Assembly: GCA_038064855.1 (NCBI GenBank)
Contig: JBBTSE010000002.1
Coordinates: 8,530 to 72,529 of the forward strand
From: Patescibacteria group bacterium
Lineage (GTDB): Bacteria > Patescibacteriota > Minisyncoccia > Ryanbacterales > GWA2-47-10b
Length of the DNA stretch: 64,000 nucleotides
Direction: 5' to 3'
A program made the translations under genes and the position numbers. A model generated the notes under the pieces. It ran no database searches. It was not told the origin of the DNA and saw nothing but the letters and a program-made list of their open reading frames with translations. Shown piece by piece: positions 23,661-62,099 of this stretch (position 1 is its first letter; each line of letters begins with the position of its first letter).

Positions 23661-23734
23661 CGGAGTGTAGTATACCGGTAGTACGTCTGCTTTGGGAGCA
23701 GATAGACTGGGTTCGATTCCCAGCACTCCGACAA
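23661..23734 (+). tRNA. tRNA-Pro (anticodon TGG)
   Basis: Acceptor CGGAGTG/CACTCCG, anticodon arm TCTGC-TTTGGGA-GCAGA, T-arm CTGGG-TTCGATT-CCCAG, discriminator A. CCA is not encoded. Confidence 0.7.
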
Positions 23735-39743: not shown

Positions 39744-40697
39744 ATGAATACTTTCCATGTCGTCTCACAATGTCGTAAGTATAATGTTTCGTTATGGACT
39801 TGTCCGCCCTTTCTCTTTATTGTCATGGGCGGAGTCAATGTAGCGGGTATGGTTACGACCGCGATTGCGGCACAGCGTTTTTCTGATGATCCGGCGGTTG
39901 TTATCATCTCGGTGTCGATGATGGCGGCGTTTCTCTTTGTGGTTGGCAATGCCGTTGTCTCATCGTTTCAGCGTTTGGCTGACGCATCGCGCATCAAATC
40001 CGAGTTCGTCAATATTGTCTCGCATCAGCTTCGCTCGCCGCTCTCGGCTATCAAGTGGCAGTTAGAGCTTATGCTTGACCAGATGAAGACGGTGACAGGA
40101 GATGTCGCCGCCACTATGGGCACGATTAGACGACAGAACGAACGCATGATCGCGCTCGTCAATGACCTGCTCGAGGTTAACCGTATTGAGGACGACCGTG
40201 TCATTTTGCGGCCAACAGCGATTACAATCGACAATTTTGTCGAGCAAATCGCCAACGGCTACAAGCCACTCGCGGAGCAGGCAGACGAAAAGCTTGTGTT
40301 TGTGGGTGAGGCAAGGCCTTTGGTGGTATTTGCTGATGAAGTAAAGCTTCGTTGGGTGACAGAAAACCTCATCGACAATGCCGTACGCTACACTAAGAAA
40401 GGCGGCGAGGTGACGGTAAAAGTATTGCGTGCTAAAAATACGGCACGCGTCGAGGTGACTGATTCGGGTATTGGTATTCCGGTAGCCGATCAGGCGATGA
40501 TTTTCCAGAAGTTCTTTCGATCGGAAAATGCCCTGCGGATGCGCGCCGAGGGCACGGGGCTCGGCCTCTATCTGGTGCGGTCACTGGTAGGTGCTATGGG
40601 TGGCAAGGCAGGTTTCGCTTCCATGGAAGGTAAAGGGTCGACATTTTGGTATACGCTCCCGCTCGTTTCGGGCGAGGCGATGGTCCAGAAAAAGTAA
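39744..40697 (+). CDS. Sensor histidine kinase (membrane, HisKA + HATPase_c)
   Basis: IVSHQLRSPLSAIKWQLELM is the H-box. DSGIGIPVADQAMIFQKFFR and GTGLGLYLVRSL are the G-boxes. Confidence 0.8.
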   Translation: MNTFHVVSQCRKYNVSLWTCPPFLFIVMGGVNVAGMVTTAIAAQRFSDDPAVVIISVSMMAAFLFVVGNAVVSSFQRLADASRIKSEFVNIVSHQLRSPLSAIKWQLELMLDQMKTVTGDVAATMGTIRRQNERMIALVNDLLEVNRIEDDRVILRPTAITIDNFVEQIANGYKPLAEQADEKLVFVGEARPLVVFADEVKLRWVTENLIDNAVRYTKKGGEVTVKVLRAKNTARVEVTDSGIGIPVADQAMIFQKFFRSENALRMRAEGTGLGLYLVRSLVGAMGGKAGFASMEGKGSTFWYTLPLVSGEAMVQKK

Positions 40698-40728
40698 TTA
40701 CAAAAATTAAAAATATATAGTATAGAGT

Positions 40729-41094
40729 ATGAAAAAACTTCTTATTATCGAAGACGAAGCGGCACTCCAAGACGCACTTCAAAAAGCGTTTGCCGCCGAT
40801 GGATATGAGATATTCCAAGCGTTTGATGGCGAAGAGGGTATCAAGCTCGCGAAAGAAAAGAAGCCAGATATGATTTTGCTCGATCTCATTTTACCGAAAA
40901 AACACGGATTTGAGGTTTTACAGGAAATCAAACAGGACGAGACAATCAAGGAGGTACCCGTGTTGGTGCTGACCAATCTTGAAGAAAGTACCGAGGTGAT
41001 GAAGGCGATTGAGCTTGGCGCGCGCGGATATTTGGTCAAGGCAAACTACGCACTCAAGGAAGTTCTTGCAAAGGTAAAAGATATTCTCGGATAA
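40729..41094 (+). CDS. Single-domain response regulator (CheY-like receiver)
   Basis: LLIIEDE...DMILLDLILP...VPVLVLTNL...GARGYLVKA. Confidence 0.85.
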   Translation: MKKLLIIEDEAALQDALQKAFAADGYEIFQAFDGEEGIKLAKEKKPDMILLDLILPKKHGFEVLQEIKQDETIKEVPVLVLTNLEESTEVMKAIELGARGYLVKANYALKEVLAKVKDILG

Positions 41095-41108
41095 AGTACT
41101 ATCCTCGG

Positions 41109-42863
41109 ATGAGAATCGATTCAGGGCAACTCAAAGCGTTTCTTCTTGATTCGGGGCTTGTCTCCGAAAAAGATATTGACGCCGCAGTTAAAAAGGCCAA
41201 AGAGCAGGATTTGCGTCCTGGAGATATTCTCGTCGCCCAAGGGAAAATAACCCAAAAAGATATTGAGCGCGTGTATGGGTACATCCTCGGGATTCCATTT
41301 GTAAATCTTGAAGGTGAAAAGATTGACCCCGAAGTGCTTCATGCGGTGCCCGAACCTATTGCGCGAGCGCACAATATCATCGCTTATAAAAAGATGGGTA
41401 AGGATTTGGAGGTAGCGATGCTCGATCCGGAGGATCTCGAGACTATTGAGTTCATCCACAAAAAATCGGGGCTTACTATCAAGCCACGCATGACTAACGA
41501 AAAATCGATGAAGTATCTCCTTTCTCTCTATCAGAAGAGTCTGGAGGCGGAGTTCGGTGAGATTATCAAGGGCGAGTCGGACGGGCTTGTTATGAGTGCC
41601 GCGTCAGTTGGTGAGGCGGGTGAGAGTGGCGAGGATCTCGAGAAGGTGGCGCAAGAGTTGCCCATCATCAAGATCGTCGATACTCTTATCCGCCACGCGA
41701 TTTTGCAAAAAGCATCTGACATTCATATCGAGCCCCTCGAAAACGAGCTTTTGGTACGGTACCGCATCGATGGTATATTGCGTGATGCGATGGTGTTGCC
41801 CAAGAAAATCGCATCAGCTGTTATCGCGCGCGTCAAAGTGCTCTCGAGCTTAAAGCTTGATGAAAAACGATTGCCACAAGACGGTCGTTTCAAGATCGAA
41901 TCGCCCGAATATAAGTTTTCAACTCGTGTCTCGGTATTGCCAGTGTATGACGGTGAAAAGATCGTCATGCGTTTGTTGCCGGAGAATGCGCGTGGCTTCA
42001 CGCTCGAATCACTCGGGTTTCATGGTGAAGGACTTGAACTGTTACATCAAAATATTAAAAAATCTGTCGGTATGATTTTAGCCACTGGTCCTACCGGATC
42101 AGGTAAGACGACGACGCTCTATACGATGATGGATTTGGTGAATACTCCCGATGTCAATATTTCTACCATTGAAGATCCGATTGAATACCGTATGCCTCGC
42201 ATTAATCAGACACAGGTGCGTCCCGATATCGGGTTTACCTTTGCCAACGGTTTGCGCAGTCTGTTGCGTCAAGATCCTGATATCTTGATGGTAGGTGAGG
42301 TTCGTGACTCGGAGACCGCTGGTCTCGCTATCAATGCCGCGCTCACTGGTCACTTGGTACTGACGACATTGCATACCAACTCTGCGGCAGGCGCGTTGCC
42401 GCGTCTCATTGATCTTGGCGTCGAGCCCTTTTTGATCGCGTCAACGGTCAATGTGATTATCGCTCAACGATTGGTGCGCACACTCTACAAATCAAGAGAG
42501 GAGTATCGTTTGACAAAAGATCAAATCGCCCAGCTCGCAAAGATTGTTGATATCGATCGTATACTTGGGTTTTTACGCGCGGAAAAAATTATCGCGCCAA
42601 AAGCAAAGATCGAAGATGTGCCATTTTATAAACCGGTACCCGCATCTGATGTGCCCGATGGCTACCAAGGGCGTATCGGTGTGCATGAGGTTATGACGGT
42701 GACGCCCGCGATGCGTGAGATGGTAATGAAAAACACGAATCCATCGGAGATTGATGCGATCGCGCGTAAGTCAGGCATGATGAGTATGCTCGAAGACGGT
42801 ATTTTTAAAGCGGCGCAGGGGATTACTACGGTCGAAGAAGTATTGCGCGTGACACAAGAATAA
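41109..42863 (+). CDS. pilB: Type IV pilus assembly ATPase PilB (GspE family)
   Basis: N-terminal GSPII_N domains, then Walker A LATGPTGSGKTTTLY and the His box. Confidence 0.9.
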   Translation: MRIDSGQLKAFLLDSGLVSEKDIDAAVKKAKEQDLRPGDILVAQGKITQKDIERVYGYILGIPFVNLEGEKIDPEVLHAVPEPIARAHNIIAYKKMGKDLEVAMLDPEDLETIEFIHKKSGLTIKPRMTNEKSMKYLLSLYQKSLEAEFGEIIKGESDGLVMSAASVGEAGESGEDLEKVAQELPIIKIVDTLIRHAILQKASDIHIEPLENELLVRYRIDGILRDAMVLPKKIASAVIARVKVLSSLKLDEKRLPQDGRFKIESPEYKFSTRVSVLPVYDGEKIVMRLLPENARGFTLESLGFHGEGLELLHQNIKKSVGMILATGPTGSGKTTTLYTMMDLVNTPDVNISTIEDPIEYRMPRINQTQVRPDIGFTFANGLRSLLRQDPDILMVGEVRDSETAGLAINAALTGHLVLTTLHTNSAAGALPRLIDLGVEPFLIASTVNVIIAQRLVRTLYKSREEYRLTKDQIAQLAKIVDIDRILGFLRAEKIIAPKAKIEDVPFYKPVPASDVPDGYQGRIGVHEVMTVTPAMREMVMKNTNPSEIDAIARKSGMMSMLEDGIFKAAQGITTVEEVLRVTQE

Positions 42864-42866
42864 TCT

Positions 42867-44111
42867 ATGGCGCGTTTTCAATTTCGGGCGCGTGACCGGC
42901 AGAGTGTTGAGCAGTCGGGTCTTCGTGATGCAGGTGATCGTTTTGAGCTCGCGCGCTTTTTGCGTACCGAGGGCCTCCTGTTGCTTGAAGCGCACGAGAT
43001 CAGCGCCTTACCCGGTGTGAATATGCCTGGCGGGCTCAAAAAAAATGTTTCCATCGATCTTAGTACCTATTTACGGCGCGTCACGCTTTCTGACAAAATC
43101 GTATTTTCAAAAAACTTGGGAGTGATGATTGGCGCAGGTCTCCCACTCACGCGCGCACTCGACGCGCTTTCCAGGGAGTCACATAACCCAAAGTTTAAAG
43201 TTACGATCTTAGCTATCGAAGATCAGATTCGGCAGGGTAAGACATTTGCTGAATCGCTCGGCAAGCATCCAAAAATTTTCCCTTCCCTCTATATTGCTAT
43301 GGTTGATGCAGGCGAGAAGTCAGGTAAGCTCAAAGAATCGCTCACACTTCTAGCTTCCCAGATGCAGGCGGATTACGATCTCGTGCGCAAGGTGAGGGGA
43401 GCGATGATGTACCCATCGATTATTTTAGCGGCGATGGTGCTCATCGGTGCGCTCATGATTGTGTATGTAGTACCAACACTCTCCGCGGTGTTTAAAGAGC
43501 TCGATGTCGAGCTACCAGCTTCCACACAATTCATCATCGACTTCTCCGACTTTTTTACTAACCACTTTATGCTGGTCATCCTCGGTTTTTTTGGGTTTAT
43601 TTTTAGTGTCATCGCATTTTTTCGTACAACCTTCGGCAAGCATTTGGCGGACAATGTTGTTATTCGTCTACCAGTGATCGGCCCGCTCGCCAAAAAGTTC
43701 AACGCCGCACGCGCTTCGCGCACGCTCTCGTCACTCTTATCGGCAGGAGTGCAGGTGATGGAAGCGCTCGAGATTACCGCGCGTGTGGTGCAGAATCATT
43801 TGTATTCACAGACGCTCTCGGACGCAAAAAAATCGATCCAAAAAGGCGATACGATTTCAAAAGTATTTTTAGCAAACGAACATCTCTATCCATCACTGGT
43901 AGGCGAGATGCTCTCGGTAGGTGAAGAGACGGGCGAGAGCTCAAAGATGCTCGGCGAGGTCGCGTCGTTTTATGAACAGCAAGTTGCCGATGCTACCAAA
44001 GATCTCTCGACCATTATCGAGCCGGTGCTCATGCTTATCATTGGTGCGGTCGTAGGTTTTTTTGCTGTCTCGATGATCACACCGATGTATTCATTGGTAG
44101 GTGCCATTTAA
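42867..44111 (+). CDS. pilC: Type IV pilus platform protein PilC (GspF family)
   Basis: Two GspF repeats and polytopic membrane helices. Confidence 0.9.
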   Translation: MARFQFRARDRQSVEQSGLRDAGDRFELARFLRTEGLLLLEAHEISALPGVNMPGGLKKNVSIDLSTYLRRVTLSDKIVFSKNLGVMIGAGLPLTRALDALSRESHNPKFKVTILAIEDQIRQGKTFAESLGKHPKIFPSLYIAMVDAGEKSGKLKESLTLLASQMQADYDLVRKVRGAMMYPSIILAAMVLIGALMIVYVVPTLSAVFKELDVELPASTQFIIDFSDFFTNHFMLVILGFFGFIFSVIAFFRTTFGKHLADNVVIRLPVIGPLAKKFNAARASRTLSSLLSAGVQVMEALEITARVVQNHLYSQTLSDAKKSIQKGDTISKVFLANEHLYPSLVGEMLSVGEETGESSKMLGEVASFYEQQVADATKDLSTIIEPVLMLIIGAVVGFFAVSMITPMYSLVGAI

Positions 44112-44112
44112 T

Positions 44113-44706
44113 ATGCGCAGAGCATTTACCATGATTGAGCTCATTATCGTGATAGGCGTCATTGGTCTTTTGGCAGCACTCATCATACCGAGCTTTGGTA
44201 CATGGCGTGAGCGGACAGTGGTCAGGTCCGCGGCGCGTGATGTTGAGAGTATTTTGAAACTTGCGCGGTCAAAGTCTCTCGCGTCAGAAGATGGAGCCAA
44301 GTACGGCGTGCTTTTTTATGATGGGGCGACAACTTTTTCTCTTTGTAAAAATCCAGATGCTATACGATTGGGCGATAGTGGCTACTATATATATACCTGT
44401 CCCACGCTTGTAAATAGCTACTCTTTGCCAAACTCGCTTTCTTTTTGTACTCCGTATACTTCGAGTATCGAACTTCAAAGTATCAGTCCAGGGTGGACTA
44501 TCATACCCGGCGTTATATTCTCAAAACTGACTGGTGAATATGAAGATATTACGCCATCCGCTACCGAAGGAGTGATATACTTTTATAATAAGAATAAGAT
44601 CGCGAGTCCCTGTGGTAGTGGTGAGGCGGCACTGACAATTTGTCGTAACAACAAAACTTGCGGTGGAGTCGTGATCACAAAATCTGGTGTGATTTATGAA
44701 AAATAA
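44113..44706 (+). CDS. Prepilin-type N-terminal cleavage/methylation domain protein (type IV pilin)
   Basis: MRRAFTMIELIIVIGVIGLLAALIIP is a class III signal. Confidence 0.75.
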   Translation: MRRAFTMIELIIVIGVIGLLAALIIPSFGTWRERTVVRSAARDVESILKLARSKSLASEDGAKYGVLFYDGATTFSLCKNPDAIRLGDSGYYIYTCPTLVNSYSLPNSLSFCTPYTSSIELQSISPGWTIIPGVIFSKLTGEYEDITPSATEGVIYFYNKNKIASPCGSGEAALTICRNNKTCGGVVITKSGVIYEK

Positions 44707-45187
44707 TAAAAAAGCCTTTTTACTCCTCGAGCTTCTTGTAGCGATAGCGCTTATCTCTACGGTGTTTGTCACACTTTTTTTCTTGCAGTCAAAACTTTTA
44801 CAGATCAAACAAGACGGCATCATGAAAGTACGCGCAACCTATTATGCACAAGAGGCGTTTGAGGCGCTACGGTATTTGCGCGCGACTGGCGGGTGGTCAA
44901 CGATCTCGTCACCAACTACTGGTGCTACAGATTATTATGCGACATTTGCCAGTAACACATGGTCGCTGAGTACTACGCCTCCCGCAGCGCTCGATGGTAT
45001 TTTCACGCGCAGTATTCGGTTTTCCCCCGTTTATCGTCAGGGCGACCAGCAGGGGGTTATTATTACAGGCCCCTCTGGATATGATGACCCCGGCACACGC
45101 AAAGTGACGGTGATGGTGAGCTGGGATAATGGATCGAAAAACATAGTACTCGATACGTATCTTACTGATTGGACTTCAAATCTATGA
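44696..45187 (+). CDS. Pseudopilin/minor pilin (prepilin-type N-terminus)
   Basis: KKAFLLLELLVAIALIS. Confidence 0.65.
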   Translation: MKNNKKAFLLLELLVAIALISTVFVTLFFLQSKLLQIKQDGIMKVRATYYAQEAFEALRYLRATGGWSTISSPTTGATDYYATFASNTWSLSTTPPAALDGIFTRSIRFSPVYRQGDQQGVIITGPSGYDDPGTRKVTVMVSWDNGSKNIVLDTYLTDWTSNL

Positions 45188-45702
45188 GACGGCGCGCCTT
45201 TACTCTTATTGAACTCTTGGTGTATGTGGGTGTGCTGGTAATAGTACTCGGCGCCATTTTCTTTTTTATGGTCAATATTATTACCAATGAACGCTCAATC
45301 GGCGACCGTGTGCGCATGATGGACGAAGCAGACTTCGCGATGCGCCAAGTACTGGACCATGCGCGTGGTGCAAAAAATTTAGAATCGACAGATTTTGCTT
45401 TTAGTAATGATGGCGAACTTACACTCACAAAGACAGATGCCGTAGTCACTATTAAGGTTGATAAATCTGATCCTACCAAGCCAAAGCTTATTATGACGAA
45501 AAATGACGGCATCAATCCTGTTTCCACGCGCATACTTACATCACCGCGTGTGGCAGTTGATATTTTTACTCTCGAGTGTGCGGGTACTATAAGCCCGTGT
45601 AGTAGTAATGCCAAAGGTGTGCGTATTAAGCTCGGTCTTCGTGATCTGGTGACGTATCAAACTATTACTATTACCACGGGCGCTACCCCGCGTGGTTATT
45701 GA
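45184..45702 (+). CDS. Pseudopilin/minor pilin (prepilin-type N-terminus)
   Basis: MRRRAFTLIELLVYVGVLVIVLGAIFFF. Confidence 0.65.
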   Translation: MRRRAFTLIELLVYVGVLVIVLGAIFFFMVNIITNERSIGDRVRMMDEADFAMRQVLDHARGAKNLESTDFAFSNDGELTLTKTDAVVTIKVDKSDPTKPKLIMTKNDGINPVSTRILTSPRVAVDIFTLECAGTISPCSSNAKGVRIKLGLRDLVTYQTITITTGATPRGY

Positions 45703-48589
45703 TATGAAATACGCAGGATACAACAGGGGGCTCGCAGCACTCACGACGATGATTATCGTACTTGTGATACTTGTGATACTGATCGCGAGCTATGGGCTTA
45801 TCACTGCGAGCTCTGCGCGGCAATTTTCCAATGTGTACCAGTCGGCGCGCGCATACTATGTGTCCGAAGCGGGTACAGAAGATGGTATCGCGCGGTATTT
45901 GCGCTCAGGGGGTGTAGTTACTGGCAGTTGGACGGTCGCCGGCCTCGTATCTGGTACGACCGATGTTGTCGCCCCTACACCAACTAACAACAATTTGATC
46001 AGTACGAGTAATGTTGGTGGGCGTAAGCGCGCTTTAAAGATAACGCTACAACTCAATCCTATCTATACCTACGCGGGTTTTATCGGCGACGGCGGTCTCT
46101 GGATGTCTGATAGTACGGATATCAAATGTGTGAGCGGTACTGGCTGTAAGGGCGAAGATGAAGCTGGTGATGCAGGTACAGTCTGGGTCAATGGTCCTGT
46201 ATGGGCAAATGGATCTGATGGTGGCGGAAAGCTTGGCAAAAGTGCGACTGATGCACGCGTGGTAGGGCATGTATATACAACCGGCAAAGTTGATATCAGG
46301 CCATCAGAGAGAAAAGAACCCGATCCCGTTAGCTCAAATCATAAGTTTGTGTGTCTGACGGACAATCCTGTCGCATTAACTGAACTGGTGTCTCCCGAAT
46401 GCAATGAAGTAGGAGCTATCAAGGCGACAGCAATCGCGCAAAGAGTGCGGATTCATGAAGGAGGTAAAAACTCAAAACGCTACGCATTTCGTGTTGCATA
46501 TCACGGAAGCGCTGATAAGTTGCCCACCGTGAAGTCATATCCCGTGCGTGAAGTGGGTAGTACGGGAGTTTGGGATACACCACAAAGAATTTTGCTCGAA
46601 AAAGATATTGGTATCGGTGCGAATGACGAACGGCTTTTTGCAAAATATAAAATTGACACTGATCATGATGGTTTAACAAATAGTCCGGGTGAAGTACTCA
46701 CTGCGGATACGCCCGAGTGGGTGTATTTCAATATTCCTGGTTCGAGCGGCCTTCAATCTGTCGATGACGATGACGGCGTTTATATCGTACTGCAGGCGGA
46801 AGGCTCTGGCGGCGATGTAAATAGTTATTACAAGGTTTATTATGATGAGAGTGCGACGCCGTGTAAGAACGATGTTTGTGGTCTTGTTCACACGGGCGGG
46901 TACGGGCAATATATTACCTCGAACCTTTTTTGCTCGAAGGACGCGAGTACGCCTTTTACCTGCAATGCAAATCTCACCAATGGCACCGCACCTCTTCTCC
47001 CGGCGGACGCTTTTAATAAACCGCGTACCGATTTTCATTTTCGTGTGTATTCACAAGGTACCGAAGATGATAACTATGAAAACTCGCTACAAGTATTCGG
47101 CGAGCTTCACGCCGATGAAGCCATTGGCGCGAGCGTCATAGGTGAAGGGTCATCCGCCAACAAAGATATTGCGTTTGTGGGCAGACGCTTTGCCTCGGCG
47201 TTTTGGAAAGATCGCCAAGCGCATGCGCGACTCTGGGGGTATAGTTTCGTTCAGCAGCTTGATAATTGCGATCTTGGAGGTTCGGGTACGGAGACGGTAG
47301 GTGATGATATTGAATCGCGCCGAGGGTGGCGGCCATTTTGTGATTCACAGGTACGCGACGTGCGAAAAACAACAAATGGGACTAATTTTAGCAGGGTAAA
47401 TTATGGCGTTTCTGAGCGCAGATATTCAGTAAATTCCACACTCTATCCGGTCAATACGGATGTTGCCACGCGCTTTTACTGCAATCCTTATAAAAACGCA
47501 GGCAATGTGACGCACGGTGGTACTGCGGCATCATGTACACAGGATTCACCGTTCAATACTTACACTCCGTATGAGTTTAATACCATGTCACAATCGAGCG
47601 GGCGCGGATGTTACTTTGGTTGTGGATCGGGCGAGAACACTAGCTGCGGCTCGGATGTATATAAGACGCACTATATTTATCCCGCGCCTGATATAAGCGC
47701 ATACGGACAGTATCCATATAATTTCTGTAAATACGCAGGCGGTGCGGAAGATATAGCATATGTCGACGAGGCAGCACTTAAAACTATACTTACTGCTCCA
47801 GCGCCCACCGGTTATGGTATTGATTCGGCAGTGCAAGATCTCTATCTACCCAAAGCACCACCAGAAAAAGGTCCATGGCCTATTTCTGAATCAAAAATCA
47901 ATGGGTGGGTAAGTTCGATTTTTACAAGTACGTGCCTTCCTGGCCCGCACATTATCACTGCATCACAGTCATGGCCTCCACTAGGACAGGCAGGCGCACC
48001 AACCTGCATAAACGGTGACCTTGTCGTACGCAACGGGGCAAAACTTACTCTCAACAGTGGTGCACATATGCACGTTAAAGGCAATTTACATCTTGTAAAA
48101 GACCCAGGCAAGCAAGGCGGCAAGATTGAGATGAACAATAGTAGCGGTGCGTTAGGATGGCCTGCTAACACTGCAGGGATTGTGATCGTCGATGGGTTTG
48201 TAGACACCGAAAATGATACTCAACTTTTAGGTGGCAACAAAGCGCAGGATGAATATATGCTTGTTATTTCACGCTCGTACAATCAAGGCGATTATGATCC
48301 CTTTAACTACCAGAATCCAACTGATCTGACTTCGGAAAACGACAAAGCGGCGATTTATAGTTTGAGCCGTCAAGACGGAGGGGCAACGGTATCGTTTTAT
48401 GCTCCCAATGGTTCCGTAGTGCTCGGGCGAGATCCTTCCAATCCCAACGCTATGCAGGTGGCGGCATATAAGTTGGTAATGCGCCGCAATACCCAAGTAA
48501 GCTATGATTATGGTGTGCTCGATATGATCTTCCCAGGTGGGCCCGCAAGCGCGTCTGGGGTCAGTGACTATGATGAAATTGCACCATAA
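45692..48589 (+). CDS. Giant pilus-associated protein with PilX-like N-terminal domain (965 aa)
   Basis: N-terminus GLAALTTMIIVLVILVILIASYGLITASSARQFSNVYQSARAYYVSEAGTEDGI matches the PilX_N pattern. A large Cys-containing extracellular region follows. Confidence 0.6.
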   Translation: MVIDMKYAGYNRGLAALTTMIIVLVILVILIASYGLITASSARQFSNVYQSARAYYVSEAGTEDGIARYLRSGGVVTGSWTVAGLVSGTTDVVAPTPTNNNLISTSNVGGRKRALKITLQLNPIYTYAGFIGDGGLWMSDSTDIKCVSGTGCKGEDEAGDAGTVWVNGPVWANGSDGGGKLGKSATDARVVGHVYTTGKVDIRPSERKEPDPVSSNHKFVCLTDNPVALTELVSPECNEVGAIKATAIAQRVRIHEGGKNSKRYAFRVAYHGSADKLPTVKSYPVREVGSTGVWDTPQRILLEKDIGIGANDERLFAKYKIDTDHDGLTNSPGEVLTADTPEWVYFNIPGSSGLQSVDDDDGVYIVLQAEGSGGDVNSYYKVYYDESATPCKNDVCGLVHTGGYGQYITSNLFCSKDASTPFTCNANLTNGTAPLLPADAFNKPRTDFHFRVYSQGTEDDNYENSLQVFGELHADEAIGASVIGEGSSANKDIAFVGRRFASAFWKDRQAHARLWGYSFVQQLDNCDLGGSGTETVGDDIESRRGWRPFCDSQVRDVRKTTNGTNFSRVNYGVSERRYSVNSTLYPVNTDVATRFYCNPYKNAGNVTHGGTAASCTQDSPFNTYTPYEFNTMSQSSGRGCYFGCGSGENTSCGSDVYKTHYIYPAPDISAYGQYPYNFCKYAGGAEDIAYVDEAALKTILTAPAPTGYGIDSAVQDLYLPKAPPEKGPWPISESKINGWVSSIFTSTCLPGPHIITASQSWPPLGQAGAPTCINGDLVVRNGAKLTLNSGAHMHVKGNLHLVKDPGKQGGKIEMNNSSGALGWPANTAGIVIVDGFVDTENDTQLLGGNKAQDEYMLVISRSYNQGDYDPFNYQNPTDLTSENDKAAIYSLSRQDGGATVSFYAPNGSVVLGRDPSNPNAMQVAAYKLVMRRNTQVSYDYGVLDMIFPGGPASASGVSDYDEIAP

Positions 48590-49106
48590 CAAAGGCATGA
48601 GTATTCTCGAGCTTCTCATCGTTATCGGCGTGATGGGTATGCTCGCGGCGATGTCATTTGTGGCCTTTCGATCATTTTTTAACAACCAAGAACTCAACGC
48701 GGCTACCGAGCAGGTAGTAGCAATATTGCGTAGCGCCCGAACCTATACTCTGTCTTCACGCAATGATAGTGCTGGGGCTACGACCAGCACATGTTATGGG
48801 GTAGCTGTTACTCCAAGTAACATAACGCTTATGTTTGACGATAGTTGTAACTGCTCACTTGATAGCGTGGTGAGCACCACGCAGTCATTGCCGGGGGGCA
48901 CATATATATCCATTGAGACATTTCCCACATATGGAGGATATGACGGCCTCTCTTTTCAACGAATAACCGGAAATGCGCAGGATATTGGCTCAAGTTGCGC
49001 GTCACTACCGGCTGGGGGCCGTATCCTTATCCTCACCTCCCGCCGCAACATCAGCATGGCGAAAGTTATAAAGATAACACCTTTGGGCAATATTGAGGTA
49101 CAATGA
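48570..49106 (+). CDS. Pseudopilin (prepilin-type N-terminus)
   Basis: MMKLHHNKGMSILELLIVIGVMGMLAAMS. Confidence 0.7.
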   Translation: MMKLHHNKGMSILELLIVIGVMGMLAAMSFVAFRSFFNNQELNAATEQVVAILRSARTYTLSSRNDSAGATTSTCYGVAVTPSNITLMFDDSCNCSLDSVVSTTQSLPGGTYISIETFPTYGGYDGLSFQRITGNAQDIGSSCASLPAGGRILILTSRRNISMAKVIKITPLGNIEVQ

Positions 49107-49621
49107 ATATAATGCATAAAGGTTTTACGCTCGTAGAGGCGCTCGTAGCCCTTGCGGTGATAGTTACTGCAGCTCTTACGGTGTATGGCGGCGTGGCGCT
49201 CTCGCACCGTGCCACAGTGCGGGGTGGCGAGCGCGCGCAGGCCGCCTTTTTGCTCGAAGAAGGGTACGAGGCGCTTTTGTATCTGCGGGATGTACACTTT
49301 GCTGATCGGTTGGGCGGCCTTACCGCTAATGGCAGCCAAATATACTGTCTAAATGATATATCTGCTGGCGGATCAATCGGGCTCATGGCTGTCCCTACAG
49401 TTGATTTGTGTACTCCGTTCGACGGTTTTACACGATCGGTGACATTTAAAAATGCTTGTCGTGATAATACTAGTCATAATATTATGGGGCAAACTACTAC
49501 CGTCTCTTGTCCTGTCGGACAAAATTTGGATACTGATACCAAGTACGCACTCATAAAAGTCACTTGGGGTACCAAAAGCGAGCAGGTCGAGGCCTATATT
49601 GCAAACCTCTTTTTGAGATGA
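49103..49621 (+). CDS. Pseudopilin (prepilin-type N-terminus)
   Basis: MHKGFTLVEALVALAVIVTAALT. Confidence 0.7.
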   Translation: MNIMHKGFTLVEALVALAVIVTAALTVYGGVALSHRATVRGGERAQAAFLLEEGYEALLYLRDVHFADRLGGLTANGSQIYCLNDISAGGSIGLMAVPTVDLCTPFDGFTRSVTFKNACRDNTSHNIMGQTTTVSCPVGQNLDTDTKYALIKVTWGTKSEQVEAYIANLFLR

Positions 49622-50169
49622 TGGCCAAGCCAATGTACAAACGGGGTGTGGGTTTAGCCGAGCTTGTAATTTATGTCGCGGTGTTCTCTATTATTGTTAC
49701 GGTTGTAGTCTCCGGCATGATTCAAGAGGCCAAACTTTTACGCCGGGCGCGCGCCGAGCGCGCAGTGGCCACCGCGGCCGAGACTATTTTGGAGCGCATC
49801 GTGCGGGAGCTCAGGCTCGCCTGCAGTACCCCGACCCCACTGACAACGCCGAGCAATACTATTTCGCTTGCCACTTTTGCGGATCTTTCTTCGCCGAGTG
49901 CCGCGGATTGTACTACAGCTTTATCAACGCGCACAATTAGTCTTTCTGGGCAGGATGTTTTATTGGGTAGCGCGCAGTTAGATCCTTCCGGTATTACAGT
50001 TAGCGGCCTTACATTTATAAAGGTGACGACTCCGGTTTCAACGGTTTCGGACGCAATTGCCGTCAAACTGACACTCTCATCTGGAGCCGCAGGCAGCTAT
50101 CAAGTTACGCGCACATATCACACGACTGCTATAATGAGGGGAAGCTATGATGCCAAAAATCCTAACTAA
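49618..50169 (+). CDS. Pseudopilin-like protein
   Basis: MMAKPMYKRGVGLAELVIYVAVFSIIVTVVVSGM. Confidence 0.6.
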   Translation: MMAKPMYKRGVGLAELVIYVAVFSIIVTVVVSGMIQEAKLLRRARAERAVATAAETILERIVRELRLACSTPTPLTTPSNTISLATFADLSSPSAADCTTALSTRTISLSGQDVLLGSAQLDPSGITVSGLTFIKVTTPVSTVSDAIAVKLTLSSGAAGSYQVTRTYHTTAIMRGSYDAKNPN

Positions 50170-52258: not shown

Positions 52259-52275
52259 AATTTCTCATCCTTCCA

Positions 52276-52391
52276 GTACAAAGGCAGCTTTTGTACTTGG
52301 GGTGGTTGTGGTAGAATAGAGTCATGGAAAGAAAAATCGTGTTTTCTGTCGGCGAGTACTATCATGTGTATAATCGTGGCGTTGATATCTT
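52276..52391. repeat. REP hairpin (GTACAAAGGCAGCTTTTGTAC) plus truncated duplicate of the RAYT promoter/5' end (first 20 codons)
   Basis: Nearly identical to 52878-52993. The truncated ORF MERKIVFSVGEYYHVYNRGV stops shortly after. Confidence 0.75.
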
Positions 52392-52925
52392 TGAGTTATT
52401 GTTGTAATATAAATCCATGGTTAATGTTTCAGTAAAAATAAAAAAACGCTCTGGCGAAGTAGCGTTGAAAGAAGTCTTAGAAGAAGTCCAGAAACTTCGT
52501 CGGGAGGTTTCCCTCTTTTTTCCGCAAGAGGATATCGGAGGATATGCCAACCAAAAACGCATTCGAGAATCTTTTCTGCGCGCGCAACATAAGTATCCTG
52601 TGCGATCTCGCCAATAAATGTTATTGAGACGCAAGATTTCGCAGTGTCTCTTGGCAAATTGCCGCCTAGCATAAGGCGGCTTTTTGCTAGGCAGAAAACA
52701 CTTTTTCTGGATGATCCTCGCGATCAGCGGCTTCATGTAAAGCTTGTCAAAGGACTTTCATCAGTTTTTTCTTTTCGGGTGACGAGGCGGTATCGTACAC
52801 TTTTTTATTTTCATGGCGTTCACACAGCAGTCTTTTTCGAAATTGATCACCGTAAGGATATCTATCGATAAATCATAGTACAAAGGCTGCCTTTGTACTT
52901 GGGGTGGTTGTGGTAGAATAGAGTC

Positions 52926-53582
52926 ATGGAAAGAAAAATCGTGTTTTCTGTCGGCGAGTACTATCATGTGTATAATCGTGGCGTGGAAAAACGAAGAATT
53001 TTTCTCGACAGAAATGACAAAGAACGCTTTCTTCGCCTGCTCTATATAGCAAACAGCGATATACCCGTTGTCTTTCGCCTTAGCCAAAAGAAACCGCTTG
53101 CCGATATTCCTGTCGGCAAAAAAGCAGTAGCAATCGGTGCTTATACGCTGATGCCCAATCATATACATTTACTTATCAAAGAGGTTGTAGACGGTGGATT
53201 GTCTTTGTTTATGGAAAAACTGATGACAGCGTATGCCAAGTATTTCAACAAGAAATATGATCGCGTCGGATCTCTGTTCCAAAGTAGATTTAAGGCCGAG
53301 CATATTGATCGGGATGAATATCTAAAGTATATATATGCCTATATACATCTGAATCCCATAAAACTCATTGAGCCAACCTGGAAGGAAAAGGGTATTGGTG
53401 ATATGAAGCGTGCAAAAAAATTTCTGGATACATATCGATATTCAAGCTATCAAGACTACGCTGGTCTACATCGGCCGGAGAAGATTATCCTTGCGCCAAA
53501 GGGATTTCCCGCGTATTTCGAAGACAGATATGCCTTTGCCGACGCGCATCAAGATTGGTTAGATTTCAAACCAACCACCTAA
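52926..53582 (+). CDS. REP-associated tyrosine transposase (IS200/IS605-like Y1 HUH transposase, RAYT)
   Basis: HUH motif PNHIHLLI and catalytic Tyr region YIYAYIHLNP. REP-like hairpins at 52880-52902 and 53578-53600 flank the gene. Confidence 0.75.
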   Translation: MERKIVFSVGEYYHVYNRGVEKRRIFLDRNDKERFLRLLYIANSDIPVVFRLSQKKPLADIPVGKKAVAIGAYTLMPNHIHLLIKEVVDGGLSLFMEKLMTAYAKYFNKKYDRVGSLFQSRFKAEHIDRDEYLKYIYAYIHLNPIKLIEPTWKEKGIGDMKRAKKFLDTYRYSSYQDYAGLHRPEKIILAPKGFPAYFEDRYAFADAHQDWLDFKPTT

Positions 53583-53594
53583 GGCTGCCTTTGT

Positions 53595-53623
53595 ACTACT
53601 TATCTACTTCGAAGGACAGTAAG
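53595..53623 (+). promoter_or_regulatory. Putative sigma70-like promoter for pilM (TTCGAA-17-TATACT)
   Basis: ttcgaaggacagtaagagtggtgtatact. The same GGTGTATACTAAA element occurs upstream of the histidine kinase gene at 39717-39729. Confidence 0.3.
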
Positions 53624-53643
53624 AGTGGTGTATACTAAAAGCA

Positions 53644-54708
53644 ATGAAGCCGTTTTCCTTCCCGGCCATTGGCGTTGATATATCTGACGAATCGTTTAAA
53701 TACATGCGATTTGGTATGGAGCAAGGTCGCCGTACGATCGCATTTTTTGGCGATCACGATTTGCCGAGCGGTTTGATTGAAGCAGGAGAGATTCAAGATG
53801 TGGCGGGTGTGGCCAAGGTGATTAAAGAGGTTTTGCATCCATATCATCACCACACACCGTACCTTACCTGCTCGTTACCAGAGGAAAAAGGGTTTTTGCG
53901 TCTTGTGCGTATGCAAAAATTGCCCGCATCCGAGGTGCGTCAAGCGCTCGAGTTTCAGCTCGAAGAGCATGTCCCGTATCCACCGGGGGATCTCTATTTT
54001 GATTACCAGGTTTTGCCGCAGGGGAGCATACCCAAAGCCGATATGCAGGTGGTGGTGACCGCGTATCCCAAGGCACTCATTGAGTCATACATCCAAGTAT
54101 TTGAGCAGGCCGGATTTATCCCTGTAGTCTTTGAGCTCGAATCGCAGGCAGTCGCGCGCGCAGTATCGCCTCGCGGGAGCGCGGAGGCGATACTGGTGGG
54201 TGATATTGGCCGTACGCGCACGACTTTTTCCATCGTCTACCATGGCAATGTCCTTTTTACCTCTACCGTAAAGATGGGCGGACGCGATCTTGACGCGACA
54301 CTTCGTGATTCGCTCCATGTCACCGAAGCGCAGGCGCGCGAGATCAAAATCGGCCGCGGTATCGATTTTTCTTCCGAAGAAATAATCAAATCAATGTCAC
54401 CCGCGTTAGCAGTTCTCAAGGCGGAGGCAGAGCGACAGATTCATTTTTGGGAGCGAAGGCGTGAGGAGGGGGAGCCCGCGATCACGACTGCGTATTTGTG
54501 CGGAGGCGACGCGCATCTCAAGGGGTTGCCTGAGTTTCTTTCGCGCGATCTTGGTGTGGCAGTCACGCGCGCAAAGATTTGGGAAAATCTTTTTGATCTC
54601 ACTCACTATGTGCCACCTATGCGCGCGCACGCTACCATGCGGTACGCAACCGCGTTTGGGCTTGCGATGCGCGGTGACGACGATTTATTTTCCGATATAC
54701 ATATATAG
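53644..54708 (+). CDS. pilM: Type IV pilus assembly protein PilM (actin-like ATPase fold)
   Basis: AIGVDISDESFKYMRF and later ASKHA-fold motifs (LVGDIGRTRTTF). Confidence 0.8.
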   Translation: MKPFSFPAIGVDISDESFKYMRFGMEQGRRTIAFFGDHDLPSGLIEAGEIQDVAGVAKVIKEVLHPYHHHTPYLTCSLPEEKGFLRLVRMQKLPASEVRQALEFQLEEHVPYPPGDLYFDYQVLPQGSIPKADMQVVVTAYPKALIESYIQVFEQAGFIPVVFELESQAVARAVSPRGSAEAILVGDIGRTRTTFSIVYHGNVLFTSTVKMGGRDLDATLRDSLHVTEAQAREIKIGRGIDFSSEEIIKSMSPALAVLKAEAERQIHFWERRREEGEPAITTAYLCGGDAHLKGLPEFLSRDLGVAVTRAKIWENLFDLTHYVPPMRAHATMRYATAFGLAMRGDDDLFSDIHI

Positions 54709-54710
54709 AT

Positions 54711-55259
54711 ATGAATTTATTGCCCCCGCATTATAAAGCAGGATTGAGGCTTGAGGCGTGGAGGCGATTTTTGGTATTTTTCGGCATCTATATGTCAGTT
54801 ATCGGTGTGGCTGCAGTAGCCTTATTGCTACCCTCGTATTTCTTTTTACAGTTTCAGATAGATGAGCTCAAATCATTCGAAGAGACTACCAAGGGTTCTC
54901 CCGACTATAGAAACACAGAAGATGGCAAAAAAACTGTGAGCAGAGTCGGGCAGCTTCTTACCACTACCAACCAATTTTTTCAAAGTGACGCAAAAGCCAC
55001 CCCGCTTATCGAAGATATTGTCTCACGCATGCCCATATCGGTATCATTATCAGACTTTTCGTATGCGCGCACAGAAGGAGAGCTCGGGACACTCAAACTC
55101 TCTGGTATCGCGGGGCATCGCGATGACTTAACACGATTTGCCGAGATACTTCAGAAAAGTCCCTATGTAAAGGAAAAAATATCAGTACCCGAATCGAGCT
55201 ATCTACGCGAGCTCAATACTTCGTTTACTCTGTCCTTGGTTATTGGCCCTGCAAACTAA
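54711..55259 (+). CDS. pilN: PilN-like bitopic membrane protein
   Basis: Short cytoplasmic N-terminus, single transmembrane helix (FLVFFGIYMSVIGVAAVALLL), periplasmic domain. Sits directly after pilM. Confidence 0.65.
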   Translation: MNLLPPHYKAGLRLEAWRRFLVFFGIYMSVIGVAAVALLLPSYFFLQFQIDELKSFEETTKGSPDYRNTEDGKKTVSRVGQLLTTTNQFFQSDAKATPLIEDIVSRMPISVSLSDFSYARTEGELGTLKLSGIAGHRDDLTRFAEILQKSPYVKEKISVPESSYLRELNTSFTLSLVIGPAN

Positions 55260-55783
55260 TGAGTGGTTTTCGTAAAAACTTTTTTATAACAGTGGGAACG
55301 ATTATCGTAGCATTCGGTGTGTTGTTTGGCGCATTTTTATACCTTTTCGCAGGTATCATCTCGCCGCTTTCATCTGAGTTTCGTTTGGTGCAGGAAAATA
55401 TTAAAATCGCGGAAGAACGCATTGCGGATTTCAAGGGCCGCGTCGCGCCCTCACTCGAGCGTGAAGAGGCTGATATGATAAAGATTGAAAAATCATTTTT
55501 TGTCTACTCCCCCGATACCGCCAAGGAGTTCATCGTGTTTCTTGAAACCGCCGCCCGCCGCAATAATTTGATAGGTGAGATAGGCAGTCTCCCCCAGGCG
55601 ATTTCTCCTACCGCATCTATGAATATTACTGGTAGCTTTGACGATATTATTGTTTTTCTACGCGAGATTGAAAATGGGCCGCTTTTACTGGCCATTGATA
55701 GCGTAGCACTCCGTGGTACGGGTAAGTCGATCTCGCTTGCCATACAAATGCGTTTACCCGTGCCGCCTCAAAGCTCGCAATAA
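55259..55783 (+). CDS. pilO: PilO-like bitopic membrane protein
   Basis: Transmembrane helix FFITVGTIIVAFGVLFGAFLYLF, then a coiled-coil segment. Translationally coupled to pilN. Confidence 0.55.
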   Translation: MSGFRKNFFITVGTIIVAFGVLFGAFLYLFAGIISPLSSEFRLVQENIKIAEERIADFKGRVAPSLEREEADMIKIEKSFFVYSPDTAKEFIVFLETAARRNNLIGEIGSLPQAISPTASMNITGSFDDIIVFLREIENGPLLLAIDSVALRGTGKSISLAIQMRLPVPPQSSQ

Positions 55784-55790
55784 TATTTTT

Positions 55791-56135
55791 ATGGCAATCA
55801 ACTGGAATATGAATATAGAATCGCTCGGGGCTCTCTTCAAAAAAAGGAAGACATCTTCTCGTGTTTCGGGCGCATTGATACCGGCCACAAAAAAAGTATG
55901 GCGTTTTTCTATCATGTTTCTCGCTATTTTCGCAGTACTTGTTGTAGCTTGTGATGCTTATATTTTTTGGGAATATGTTATCAACCAACAGGATGTAGAC
56001 ATTGGCGAGCGAGGTACCGTTGTAGGGATCAACCGCGCGCTTTTTGATAATGTTTCAAACTTAATTGATGAGCGCGCGACGCGTTTTGGACAAGCGAAAA
56101 CAGTAGAACCGATCAGGAATCCATTTGATAAATAG
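55791..56135 (+). CDS. Hypothetical membrane protein (possible PilP-like accessory)
   Basis: Transmembrane helix VWRFSIMFLAIFAVLVVA. Last gene of the pilMNO block. Confidence 0.4.
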   Translation: MAINWNMNIESLGALFKKRKTSSRVSGALIPATKKVWRFSIMFLAIFAVLVVACDAYIFWEYVINQQDVDIGERGTVVGINRALFDNVSNLIDERATRFGQAKTVEPIRNPFDK

Positions 56136-56139
56136 TTTG

Positions 56140-56213
56140 TGCCCCGGGAGGGAATCGAACCCCCATCAACGGCTTAGAAGTCCGCTGCACTATCCATTGT
56201 GCTACCGGGGCTT
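56140..56213 (-). tRNA. tRNA-Arg (anticodon TCT)
   Basis: Reverse complement GCCCCGGTAGCACAATGGATAGTGCAGCGGACTTCTAAGCCGTTGATGGGGGTTCGATTCCCTCCCGGGGCA. One A-G mismatch at 31-39. Confidence 0.65.
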
Positions 56214-61463: not shown

Positions 61464-62096
61464 ATGAAATTAAATCTTTCTCGCGGTTCTTCGCCTCTCA
61501 TTATTGTCGCTCTCACTATTGTCGTAATCATCGTCATCGGTGGGGGGTACTATTATTTTACTCAGTCTCCAAAAGGTGAGATGGCCTGCTCTGCCGAGGC
61601 AAAGCTTTGCCCTGACGGTAGTGCCGTGGGCCGCACGGGTCCCAACTGCGAATTTGCCCCGTGTCCCAATGCGGATATGCCAAAAGATGCGTTGCCGCCT
61701 CCGGCGAAAGAAACACAACCCATCACTTTCACTGGCACGGTGCTAGCAGGATCAAAGTCACCGCTCATTGATTACAACAAAGCTGATTATGACAAGGCGC
61801 TTGCGTCAGACAAATTGGTAGTGTTGTATTTCTATGCAAATTGGTGCCCTATTTGCCGTGTAGAATTCCCTGAAGCACAAAAAGCATTCAATGAACTTAA
61901 CGATGATCGCGTGGTGGGCTTCCGTATCAACTACGAAGATAGTGATGTCACGCCTGATGAAAAAGTACTCGCGCGCGAGTTCAATATTACCTACCAGCAC
62001 ACCAAGGTGTTGATCAAAAATGGCAAGCGTATTCTTAAAGCGCCCGAGACTTGGAATAAAGATCGTTATCTTTCAAAGATTAAAGAGAATCTCTAA
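61464..62096 (+). CDS. Membrane-anchored thioredoxin-fold thiol-disulfide oxidoreductase (TlpA/ResA-like)
   Basis: N-terminal transmembrane segment. LVVLYFYANWCPICR carries the CxxC motif. Confidence 0.75.
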   Translation: MKLNLSRGSSPLIIVALTIVVIIVIGGGYYYFTQSPKGEMACSAEAKLCPDGSAVGRTGPNCEFAPCPNADMPKDALPPPAKETQPITFTGTVLAGSKSPLIDYNKADYDKALASDKLVVLYFYANWCPICRVEFPEAQKAFNELNDDRVVGFRINYEDSDVTPDEKVLAREFNITYQHTKVLIKNGKRILKAPETWNKDRYLSKIKENL

Positions 62097-62099
62097 GGT

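Follow-up and report, generated by a model that had tools for sequence, protein, structure and literature searches.

The DNA analysed here is a 64-kb stretch (below called the window) from the genome of a Patescibacteria group bacterium, and between positions 39744 and 56135 it contains a type IV pilus (T4P) assembly operon of a Parcubacteria-type Patescibacterium. Two tandem modules of minor-pilin-like genes, each closed by a giant PilX/GspK-like protein, are situated between pilC and pilM, and a histidine kinase and a receiver-only response regulator are located directly upstream of pilB. The reading we favour, and hold to be rather probable, is that of a T4P operon with two tandem tip modules, with the giants located at the tip, where they would provide the pili with alternative tips, and with the receiver acting on the motor. 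The region is a single-strand string of open reading frames (ORFs), all on the + strand (Table 1), which runs from the kinase and the receiver through PilB, PilC, the two minor-pilin modules and a mobile insertion to PilM, PilN, a PilO-like protein and a small membrane protein, and in this respect the coordinates and ORFs of an earlier description made from the sequence alone (the original prediction) could be confirmed. Each of the 16 pilus genes is an intact ORF for which the start is plausible; neighbouring genes are spaced by -23 to +31 bp from the kinase through the second giant and by -1 to +7 bp in the part that begins with pilM, a tightness which suggests that they are organised as one or two operons. 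A promoter scan gave promoter-like sites at chance level (29 vs 27.5 expected). Directly beyond the last gene of the operon a tRNA-Arg is located on the - strand (56139-56211).

The same gene order was seen again in dozens of independent genomes, so the clustering exceeds what would be expected by chance, and in public records the genes of the locus are annotated as hypothetical proteins. The encoded proteins are identical to "Patescibacteria group bacterium" entries from a metagenome-assembled genome of Hainich groundwater (MAG; locus tags AAB417_00670 and AAB417_00690), and identical DNA is present in an assembly of groundwater from Hainich well H51 (0.1-µm fraction). The flanking genes are consistent with a Patescibacterial chromosome (NusA, H+-pyrophosphatase, a trigger factor without PPIase domain, ClpP and RNase Y; ~48% GC), and since the organism is a Patescibacterium an episymbiont context for the locus is reasonable.

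Between pilC and the insertion there are eight pilin-like genes in a row, three small ones followed by a protein of 961/965 aa (giant 1) and three small ones followed by a protein of 703 aa (giant 2), which corrects the seven consecutive prepilin-like genes that had been counted before. The two modules share the same order, a GspH-like, a GspI-like and a J-like gene and then the giant GspK/PilX-like gene, whose product lacks Glu5. When 80 PilB-anchored loci from species-representative genomes were classified with local hidden Markov models (HMMs), the general layout of kinase, response regulator, PilB, PilC, h, i, j, X, PilM, PilN and PilO was found across about 40 species. Among the loci with at least 7 kb of downstream sequence (n=58), 27 contain one PilX-like gene and five contain two, which bears out the description of the cluster as expanded. 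The five are the window, three loci of its clade and, as the only one outside this clade, a locus on CAYGDD010000003.1 (L044), where the different order h X i j X suggests an independent duplication.

The closest relatives of the locus were found on an ENA metagenome contig (L004) and in Hainich well H41 (L006), with PilB 92% identical in both. In these two loci the kinase, the response regulator, PilB, PilC, module 1, module 2, PilM, PilN, PilO and the small protein follow in the same order, and the identity to L004 and L006, respectively, is 87% and 85% for PilC and 91% and 92% for PilM. The four genes of module 1 show 66-88% identity to L004 and 62-73% to L006, while in module 2 three of the four proteins are just 28-36% identical to their orthologues. 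The fourth, the I-like pilin (mp5), aligns at its ends only, with 43-50% identity over ~60 N-terminal residues; residues 7-70 and 59-170 of this 172-aa protein align to the two ends of orthologues of 390 and 421 aa. Those orthologues (L004:13471-14643 and L006:13421-14686) carry a concanavalin-A-like lectin domain, Laminin_G_3, of ~200 aa (9e-20 and 2e-22) which is lacking in mp5, and they indicate that also a small core minor pilin can bear a binding module. The L006 protein gave in addition a weak match to the clostridial-neurotoxin receptor-binding domain. Giant 2, with its 703 aa, is likewise different in length from its orthologues of 883-955 aa.

This difference between the modules could also be read as a division of labour, where module 1 would form the essential priming complex, for example of a DNA-uptake or housekeeping pilus, and module 2 an exchangeable adhesin cassette, or where the two would serve two filaments with different major pilins. 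The contrast in conservation (62-88% for module 1 vs 28-36% for module 2 at a 92% identical PilB) and the gain or loss of lectin-type domains in module 2 only speak for it, as does the presence in Nanosynbacter lyticus TM7x of two filament types with separate PilX proteins. On the other hand the window contains one PilB, one PilC and no major pilin gene, most related genomes have a single module, and a comparison of E-values with single-module loci, aimed at the module that corresponds to the ancestral one, was contradictory, the I-like genes there being closer to module 1 and the J-like genes to module 2; we judge such a division to be rather unlikely.

Table 1. Features of the pilus locus, with positions in the window. 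Arrows mark the predicted leader cleavage sites.
Feature	Position	Strand	Support
Small histidine kinase, 317 aa	39744..40697	+	Pfam HisKA 1.5e-13, HATPase_c 9.7e-28
Receiver-only CheY-like response regulator, 121 aa	40729..41094	+	Pfam Response_reg 3.7e-24
PilB-type extension ATPase with N-terminal MshEN	41109..42863	+	Pfam T2SSE 6.6e-121, MshEN 2.4e-13
PilC platform protein	42867..44111	+	Pfam T2SSF 4.4e-54, two stretches
mp1, module 1, GspH/FimU-like, leader MRRA↓FTMIEL	44113..44706	+	TIGR02532 22.7 bits, cut-off 16.3
mp2, module 1, GspI/PilV-like, leader MKNNKKA↓FLLLEL	44696..45187	+	paralogue of mp5
mp3, module 1, J-like by position, leader MRRRA↓FTLIEL	45184..45702	+	N_methyl 25.0 bits, cut-off 21.2
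Giant 1, PilX/GspK-type without Glu5, NRG↓LAALT	45704..48589	+	961 aa from ATG, 965 aa from upstream GTG
mp4, module 2, GspH-like, leader MMKLHHNKG↓MSILEL	48570..49106	+	N_methyl 21.5 bits; GspH 4.8e-4
mp5, module 2, GspI-like, leader MNIMHKG↓FTLVEA	49103..49621	+	N_methyl 24.4 bits; TIGR02532 21.2 bits; GspI 5.4e-5
mp6, module 2, J-like by position, leader MAKPMYKRG↓VGLAEL	49621..50169	+	N_methyl 16.3 bits, below cut-off
Giant 2, PilX/GspK-type without Glu5, RKG↓FAALA, 703 aa	50147..52258	+	hhalign, AlphaFold2
Mobile insertion, 1385 bp	52259..53643		absent from relatives
PilM, actin-like ATPase fold	53644..54708	+	Pfam PilM_2 2e-35, full length
PilN	54711..55259	+	Pfam PilN 23.4 bits, cut-off 22.8 (marginal)
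PilO/GspM-like bitopic membrane protein	55259..55783	+	GspM 9.4e-5, below cut-off; position, topology
Small single-pass membrane protein, 114 aa, last in operon	55791..56135	+	no family match

A class III leader of the type [G/A]↓[F/M/V]xxxE could be read by eye in all six small pilins, and four of them passed a curated threshold for the prepilin signal (N_methyl in mp3, mp4 and mp5; TIGR02532 in mp1 and mp5), the other two staying below the cut-offs. Full-length alignments identify mp1 and mp4 (25% identity, E 6e-10) as well as mp2 and mp5 (26% identity, E 3e-10) as pairs of paralogues. The top NCBIfam families were GspH for the first gene of each set (4.6e-8 in mp1) and GspI for the second gene of set 2, in all cases under the curated cut-offs: the GspH equivalog cut-off of 80 was not reached with 33.2 and 20.2 bits, nor the GspI cut-off of 44.35 with 23.6 bits. 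In mp2, N_methyl, ComGE, PilV and GspI gave weak matches, none of which reached the cut-off. For the J-like genes NCBIfam gave only matches at the level of the N-terminal helix, which were weak ones to HpsC and ComGF in mp3 and to Verru_Chthon cassette protein C in mp6, the latter protein being 33-35% identical to its L004 and L006 orthologues. Judged by these profiles, the small pilins appear to resemble H, I and J in order and size and not to be members of these families at the curated level. In the public gene call mp4 begins at 48597 (MSILELL...), whereby the leader MMKLHHNKG is dropped; from the sequence the true start must be the ATG at 48570 or 48573, overlapping the end of the 965-aa gene.

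The N-termini of both giants had been said to match the PilX N-domain, and as a direct match this did not hold. PF14341 (PilX_N) aligned end to end with the N-terminus of giant 1 at an E-value of 0.59 (10.6 bits, cut-off 25.5) and gave no match to giant 2. Homology could instead be followed through intermediates. An exhaustive search with a profile built from the 965-aa protein and eight close homologues gave 556 cluster representatives at E <= 1e-3, of which 144 reached E <= 1e-10, and PF14341 is present in 12 of 40 relatives found with this profile (E <= 1e-17), at best with 1.7e-10; a few of the 40 carry Bactofilin, DUF7305, DUF4082 or DUF5649. The giant 2 family (the 703-aa protein and two orthologues) matched the broad family with an hhalign probability of 100 (E 6.4e-51), and profile-profile comparison of the giant 1 and giant 2 families gave a probability of 96 (E 2e-9) over the N-terminal 190 residues. 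By this indirect route, and with the confident structure model of giant 2 described below, the giants are placed in a PilX_N-type family.

Most of the relatives of giant 1 are 410-620 aa long and match the profile only at positions ~1-190 and ~690-929, which indicates that giant 1 consists of a common two-domain protein with ~490 inserted residues. Its parts are accordingly an N-domain (~1-190), a clade-specific insert (~200-690), in which cysteines occur (18 in the whole protein), and a beta-rich C-domain (~690-961). The insert is confined to the clade of the window and to three further proteins (P0011-P0013), one of them from a Candidatus Ryanbacteria MAG, and a profile search found no sequence relative of it in PDB. 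In four single-module loci (L023, L030, L047 and L060) PilX-like proteins of 897-980 aa were found that lack the giant 1 insert, so it seems that giant size arose repeatedly through different insertions between the same N- and C-domains.

For giant 2 an AlphaFold2 (AF2) model was obtained from a 124-sequence alignment, with a predicted local distance difference test score (pLDDT) of 78.8 and a predicted template modelling score (pTM) of 0.78. The model starts with a 60-residue helix (10-69) running from the cleavage site and followed by a four-stranded sheet, together resembling a pilin head, and continues with beta-rich rungs, a beta-sandwich (~212-334), a disordered Pro-rich linker (419-462) and a beta-rich C-domain (506-701). 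For the giants the original prediction had proposed a search for lectin or adhesin folds by structure prediction. With Foldseek, matches were obtained to a baseplate protein of phage phi812 (6e-4), to minor tail and beta-helix proteins of phages (4e-7 at best) and, at a weaker level, to carbohydrate-binding modules and the furin chain (1p8j); they hint at a binding-type beta architecture in the model and assign nothing. A word-indexed search with giant 2, both as single sequence and as 3-sequence profile, returned the query itself only, profile searches of PDB with the broad family, the giant 1 insert and the giant 2 family gave no significant match, and no vWA or lectin domain of Pfam was detected in either giant.

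It could be argued that the giants are not pilus subunits and instead membrane-anchored surface proteins or adhesins held by an uncleaved N-terminal helix, as they lack a direct pilin match in Pfam and NCBIfam as well as Glu5, and the PilX proteins of TM7x are likewise without predicted PilD signal. The absence of Glu5 is however the rule for GspK and PilX (PMC7541494). Of 40 family members at least 90% retain the Gly of the predicted cleavage site, which precedes F-A-A without Glu5; in both modules, and likewise in ~30 other loci, the giant takes the fourth place behind the H-, I- and J-like genes, and the giants overlap or abut the neighbouring small-pilin genes with gaps of -23 to +7 bp. 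Missing class III processing sites or a lack of co-transcription with the pilins had been named as observations by which the giants might be unrelated surface proteins; the giants carry a predicted cleavage site and are encoded in one tight gene string with the small pilins, and so pass this check. Together with the pilin-like AF2 model of giant 2 and the transitive homology to PF14341 proteins this makes a non-pilin nature of the giants very improbable.

Further large secreted or surface proteins flank the pilus region. In a 454-aa protein (23989-25353) that combines DUF7305 and a MopE metal-binding motif with a long Pro/Thr linker, a G-x-FYAP...V motif resembles the C-termini of the giant pilins; a 754-aa protein (25597-27861) has five He_PIG/Big_9 Ig repeats and poly-Pro and poly-Gly runs, and the MopE motif is found again in an 810-aa protein (58965-61397). 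A membrane-anchored thioredoxin and a DsbD-type transmembrane protein are encoded 5 kb downstream of the operon (61464-62864) and may be relevant to disulfide handling of nearby Cys-containing extracellular proteins such as the 965-aa pilin with its 18 Cys.

The two genes upstream of pilB encode a histidine kinase and a CheY-like receiver, and both the Pfam domains and the measured distance of 14 bp between the stop of the receiver gene and the start of pilB agree with what had been proposed for this two-component system before pilB-pilC. As read from its sequence, the kinase starts with two hydrophobic segments joined by a loop of ~8 residues, has no separate sensor domain and continues with HisKA, in which the H-box is SHQLRSPL, and HATPase_c. 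In the receiver protein Response_reg spans residues 5-111 of 121 and no second domain was found with Pfam, while the acidic pocket (E8 and D9), D52 (in LLDLILP), T82 and K104 can be recognised. By sequence the pair is a single-domain CheY-like regulator, with the phospho-acceptor Asp present, and an adjacent HisKA/HATPase_c kinase. The identity to the L004 and L006 orthologues is 93% and 91% for the kinase and 90% in each case for the receiver; a kinase of ~315 aa occupies the same position in 37 related loci, and receiver ORFs of 120-134 aa (~122 aa) are found there in most of them. Directly upstream of pilB the pair was found in 35 of the 55 loci with a PilB at least about 50% identical and in 0 of the 18 loci with a more distant PilB, and this conserved synteny suggests a functional link of the two-component pair to the pilus; the mechanism is not thereby supported.

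As the regulator has no output domain it presumably acts by protein contact or as a phosphate sink, and as the kinase has just two membrane helices and a loop of ~8 residues the signal is likely to be sensed within or at the membrane. The kinase without sensor domain might phosphorylate the receiver-only regulator, and this in turn might contact PilB, PilM or PilC and switch extension on or off; the CheY-like control of the pilus motor that the original prediction read from the receiver stays a suggestion, weaker than those made for the pilins. PilS senses the pilin pool, and by analogy the kinase of the pilus locus may do so as one possibility. Membership in PilS-PilR or Pil-Chp was considered and rejected, the regulator having no output domain and the kinase being of a small HisKA type.

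Of the remaining assembly proteins PilM was clearly identified and PilN marginally, the latter 80-82% identical in the relatives L004 and L006, and the small membrane protein that should follow is present, 70% identical in L004 and L006 and found in the same place in several other loci. The pilO proposed between them could not be confirmed by Pfam, where the protein had no match, and NCBIfam gave only a weak GspM similarity below cut-off; the protein has a single N-terminal membrane helix and its place after pilN is conserved among the loci. No prepilin peptidase (PilD, Peptidase_A24), PilT or secretin was matched by Pfam in any scanned ORF of the window, pilB is its sole T2SSE-family gene, and tblastn with PilB returned PilB alone and no PilB/PilT paralogue, so the stated lack of pilT, pilD and secretin in the window stands. 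A type II secretion system (T2SS) was rejected because secretin, GspL and GspG are absent in the window and PilM and PilN are present. Outside the eight pilin-like genes no pilin motif was found in the window, and as none of the eight stands out as major subunit, the major pilin is probably encoded elsewhere in the genome.

In the relatives the distance from giant 2 to pilM is 38-49 bp, and the insertion that separates the two here is recent and specific to the genome of the window. It contains an intact HUH/Y1 transposase gene (52926-53582; Pfam Y1_Tnp 1.5e-9; motifs NHIHLLI and YAYIHLNP) and a 111-nt direct repeat (52275-52385 and 52877-52987, 97% identical) that comprises a hairpin and the first 20 transposase codons. 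A perfect hairpin, GTACAAAGGCTGCCTTTGTAC, is located 27 bp upstream of the transposase gene, with a half copy at its stop codon (53581-53597); in all, this hairpin (GTACAAAGGCNGCCTTTGTAC) is present in two full copies and one half copy, all beside the transposase gene and nowhere else in the 64 kb. The insertion had been called a REP-associated tyrosine transposase (RAYT) element. The Y1 transposase is there, and the RAYT label was not established, since NCBIfam REP_Tyr_transpos scored 42.7 bits, below its cut-off of 80, and the hairpin is absent elsewhere in the 64 kb. In the ~490 bp between the repeat copies two small ORFs are found, 52417-52617 (66 aa) and 52644-52871 (75 aa), the second with a ParE_like match at E 0.018 only; going by this match it might belong to a toxin-antitoxin pair which the transposase element captured or which inserted into it.

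The insertion is also the starting point for regarding the locus as degrading in this genome, with the transposase cutting pilMNO off from its promoter, module 2 eroding and the expansion being functionally irrelevant. The 1385 bp are absent from the relatives and carry a terminator-like hairpin (52661-52680), the single strong one of a terminator scan, and in module 2 the lengths of giant 2 (703 vs 883-955 aa) and mp5 (172 vs 390-421 aa) fit such a view. Against it, the 16 pilus genes are intact and three samples independently yielded the same sequence on assembly, PilM, PilN and PilO are 68-92% identical to their orthologues, an insertion can bring its own promoter, and gain of domains in the relatives is equally likely as loss here. 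We consider decay of the whole locus to be a very doubtful explanation.

According to the favoured reading, each module would form, on the PilC/PilMNO platform, a priming complex from which a major pilin, encoded at another place, would begin to polymerise and which then would remain at the pilus tip, with the Glu5-less giant at the very top displaying its inserted modules, in giant 1 the ~490-aa cysteine-containing module and in giant 2 the beta-sandwich and the beta-rich stalk. One machine would in this way make pili with two alternative tips, of which the one from the conserved module 1 might have a constant function or ligand and the one from the hypervariable module 2 might be an adhesin specific for a partner or host, or be under pressure from phages or hosts. 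These steps follow the paradigm of GspH-I-J-K, FimU-PilV-PilW-PilX and Myxococcus xanthus (PMC7541494), and the proposed adhesin role of the giants is supported by analogy with TM7x, where a large PilX is needed for efficient host binding. A role as tip adhesins, put forward by the original prediction, is on these grounds suggested for both giants, and because module 2 is hypervariable, with lectin-type domains in the relatives and a beta-sandwich here, it would be the better candidate for partner specificity.

A further reading, to which we give a modest chance, combines a minimal signalling pair dedicated to the pilus of Parcubacteria-type Patescibacteria, in which a two-helix membrane kinase without sensor domain and a CheY-like protein would gate the motor directly, with a two-cassette tip in this clade, in which module 2, in the manner of a phage receptor-binding protein, would set the host cell to which the episymbiont can attach. 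The tip with the ~490-aa cysteine-containing domain, one not seen before, would here be constant and the second tip swapped or diversified between near-identical strains, and what the kinase senses within the membrane would perhaps be envelope contact or the pilin pool.

Several observations weigh against the favoured reading of two alternative tips and a regulated motor. The giants, whether whole, as N- or C-terminal fragments or via close homologues, gave no significant Pfam or NCBIfam match. The AF2 model of giant 1, made from a 9-sequence alignment, was unusable (pLDDT 37), and the Foldseek matches of giant 2 in PDB and BFVD are local ones of ~200 residues only, with TM about 0.1-0.2. A GspK structure was not recovered by the PDB profile searches, where ComZ (6qvi) was the sole minor-pilin chain, with a not significant E-value of 0.77 over 18 residues. 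The pilins of module 1 have Ala instead of Gly at position -1, giant 2 and mp5 fall short of the length of their orthologues, possibly through decay instead of adaptation, and the insertion may uncouple pilMNO from the upstream genes. Within the 64 kb there is no major pilin, prepilin peptidase or PilT, which bears on processing and retraction. Receiver-only regulators can also serve as phosphate sinks or feed other partners, and the organism is uncultivated and the locus known from its genes alone.

Elsewhere in the window, the first 22800 bp (1-22800) differ from the rest by a GC content of 58-65% vs ~48%, with a sharp break at ~22800 and a tRNA-Pro (23661-23732) ~860 bp past it. Among the products of this part are a serine recombinase (99-1892), a pair of VirD4/TraG-like coupling proteins encoded on the - strand (4978-8067 and 19239-20456), an NHL-repeat protein of 1172 aa and an SH3 protein of 1120 aa. 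Either a conjugative-type island has integrated here or the MAG contains a chimeric join; calculated from coordinates, the ENA assembly of this organism does not begin before about position 26784 of the window. Between the genes for trigger factor and NusA the window, like L006, has a membrane H+-pyrophosphatase of 657 aa (36375-38348, - strand), and at the same position L004 has a soluble inorganic pyrophosphatase of 175 aa (L004:2151-2678, - strand), which looks like an in-place swap of non-homologous enzymes catalysing the same reaction.

A large share of bacterial diversity belongs to the Patescibacteria, and to our knowledge all their cultivated members live attached to other cells. Determinants of their host specificity are, as far as we know, known solely for one oral Saccharibacterium. 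T4P are their best-supported attachment device (PMC11623550). Module 2 is a possible specificity determinant in the larger Parcubacteria branch, varying drastically between strains whose motors are 92% identical, and giant 1 is a conserved tip-protein candidate with a domain lacking a known relative. The two-component pair beside pilB in dozens of species is a regulatory pair of which a full-text literature search for the kinase-receiver-pilB synteny found no description. Should the inferences prove wrong, the locus would still be a reference layout for annotating genes now labelled as hypothetical.

When comparing the locus with described systems, T4P loci in Patescibacteria, large PilX-type candidate adhesins and multiple minor-pilin sets per machine are already known, while the tandem modules within the operon, the extreme divergence of one of them, the insert of giant 1 and the synteny of kinase, receiver and pilB appear to be new. 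With GspH-GspI-GspJ-GspK of the T2SS the modules share the order H, I, J, K and a last subunit that is the largest and lacks Glu5. They differ in that no GspG is found beside the modules, no secretin and no GspL are present and the scores are under the curated cut-offs, and in that GspK is a protein of ~330 aa with an alpha-domain insert whereas the giants are beta-rich and 703-965 aa long. The modular minor pilins of monoderm T4P (PilB and PilC of Streptococcus sanguinis) and of Thermus (ComZ) likewise combine a pilin module with a bulky binding module, a likeness which is architectural only. ComZ carries a beta-solenoid. PilB of S. sanguinis is described as a bimodular pilin with a direct role in adhesion (PMC8179133).

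In Pseudomonas, Pil-Chp and PilS-PilR also show a membrane kinase associated with pilus genes, whereas the kinase here is small and of HisKA type, not ChpA. PilR carries AAA+ and DNA-binding domains, unlike the regulator here, which is without output domain. The Pil-Chp response regulators PilG and PilH influence the localisation of PilB, and a direct contact between PilG and PilB is not known (PMC11656802).

Several paralogous four-pilin sets per T4P machine are found in clusters 1-3 of M. xanthus, where three minor-pilin/PilY1 sets are used with one machine and one major pilin and where PilX is without Glu5 (PMC7541494). In these sets of FimU-PilV-PilW-PilX, PilX (PF14341) tops the priming and tip complex, and the alternative tips are proposed to bind differently (PMC7541494). 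The sets of M. xanthus are however situated at separate loci and here in tandem within the operon between pilC and pilM, and PilY1 is present there while here there is none and the PilX-like subunit itself is enlarged (703-965 aa). A further difference is that the locus belongs to a Patescibacterium, with no secretin gene in the window and with one set hypervariable beside near-identical machines.

TM7x, a member of the Saccharibacteria, is also one of the Patescibacteria; there PilX1 and PilX2 are large minor pilins with lectin-like jelly roll and beta-propeller domains at the C-terminus, proposed as tip adhesins, and PilX2 is needed for efficient host binding (PMC11623550). In both cases the largest minor pilin per locus has accessory domains and no canonical predicted PilD signal. 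TM7x has two T4P systems with their own ATPases and major pilins, whereas here one PilB and one PilC are shared by both modules, and a histidine kinase or response regulator is not mentioned in PMC11623550. The accessory domains differ as well, being here a beta-rich stalk with a beta-sandwich and a novel insert of ~490 aa.

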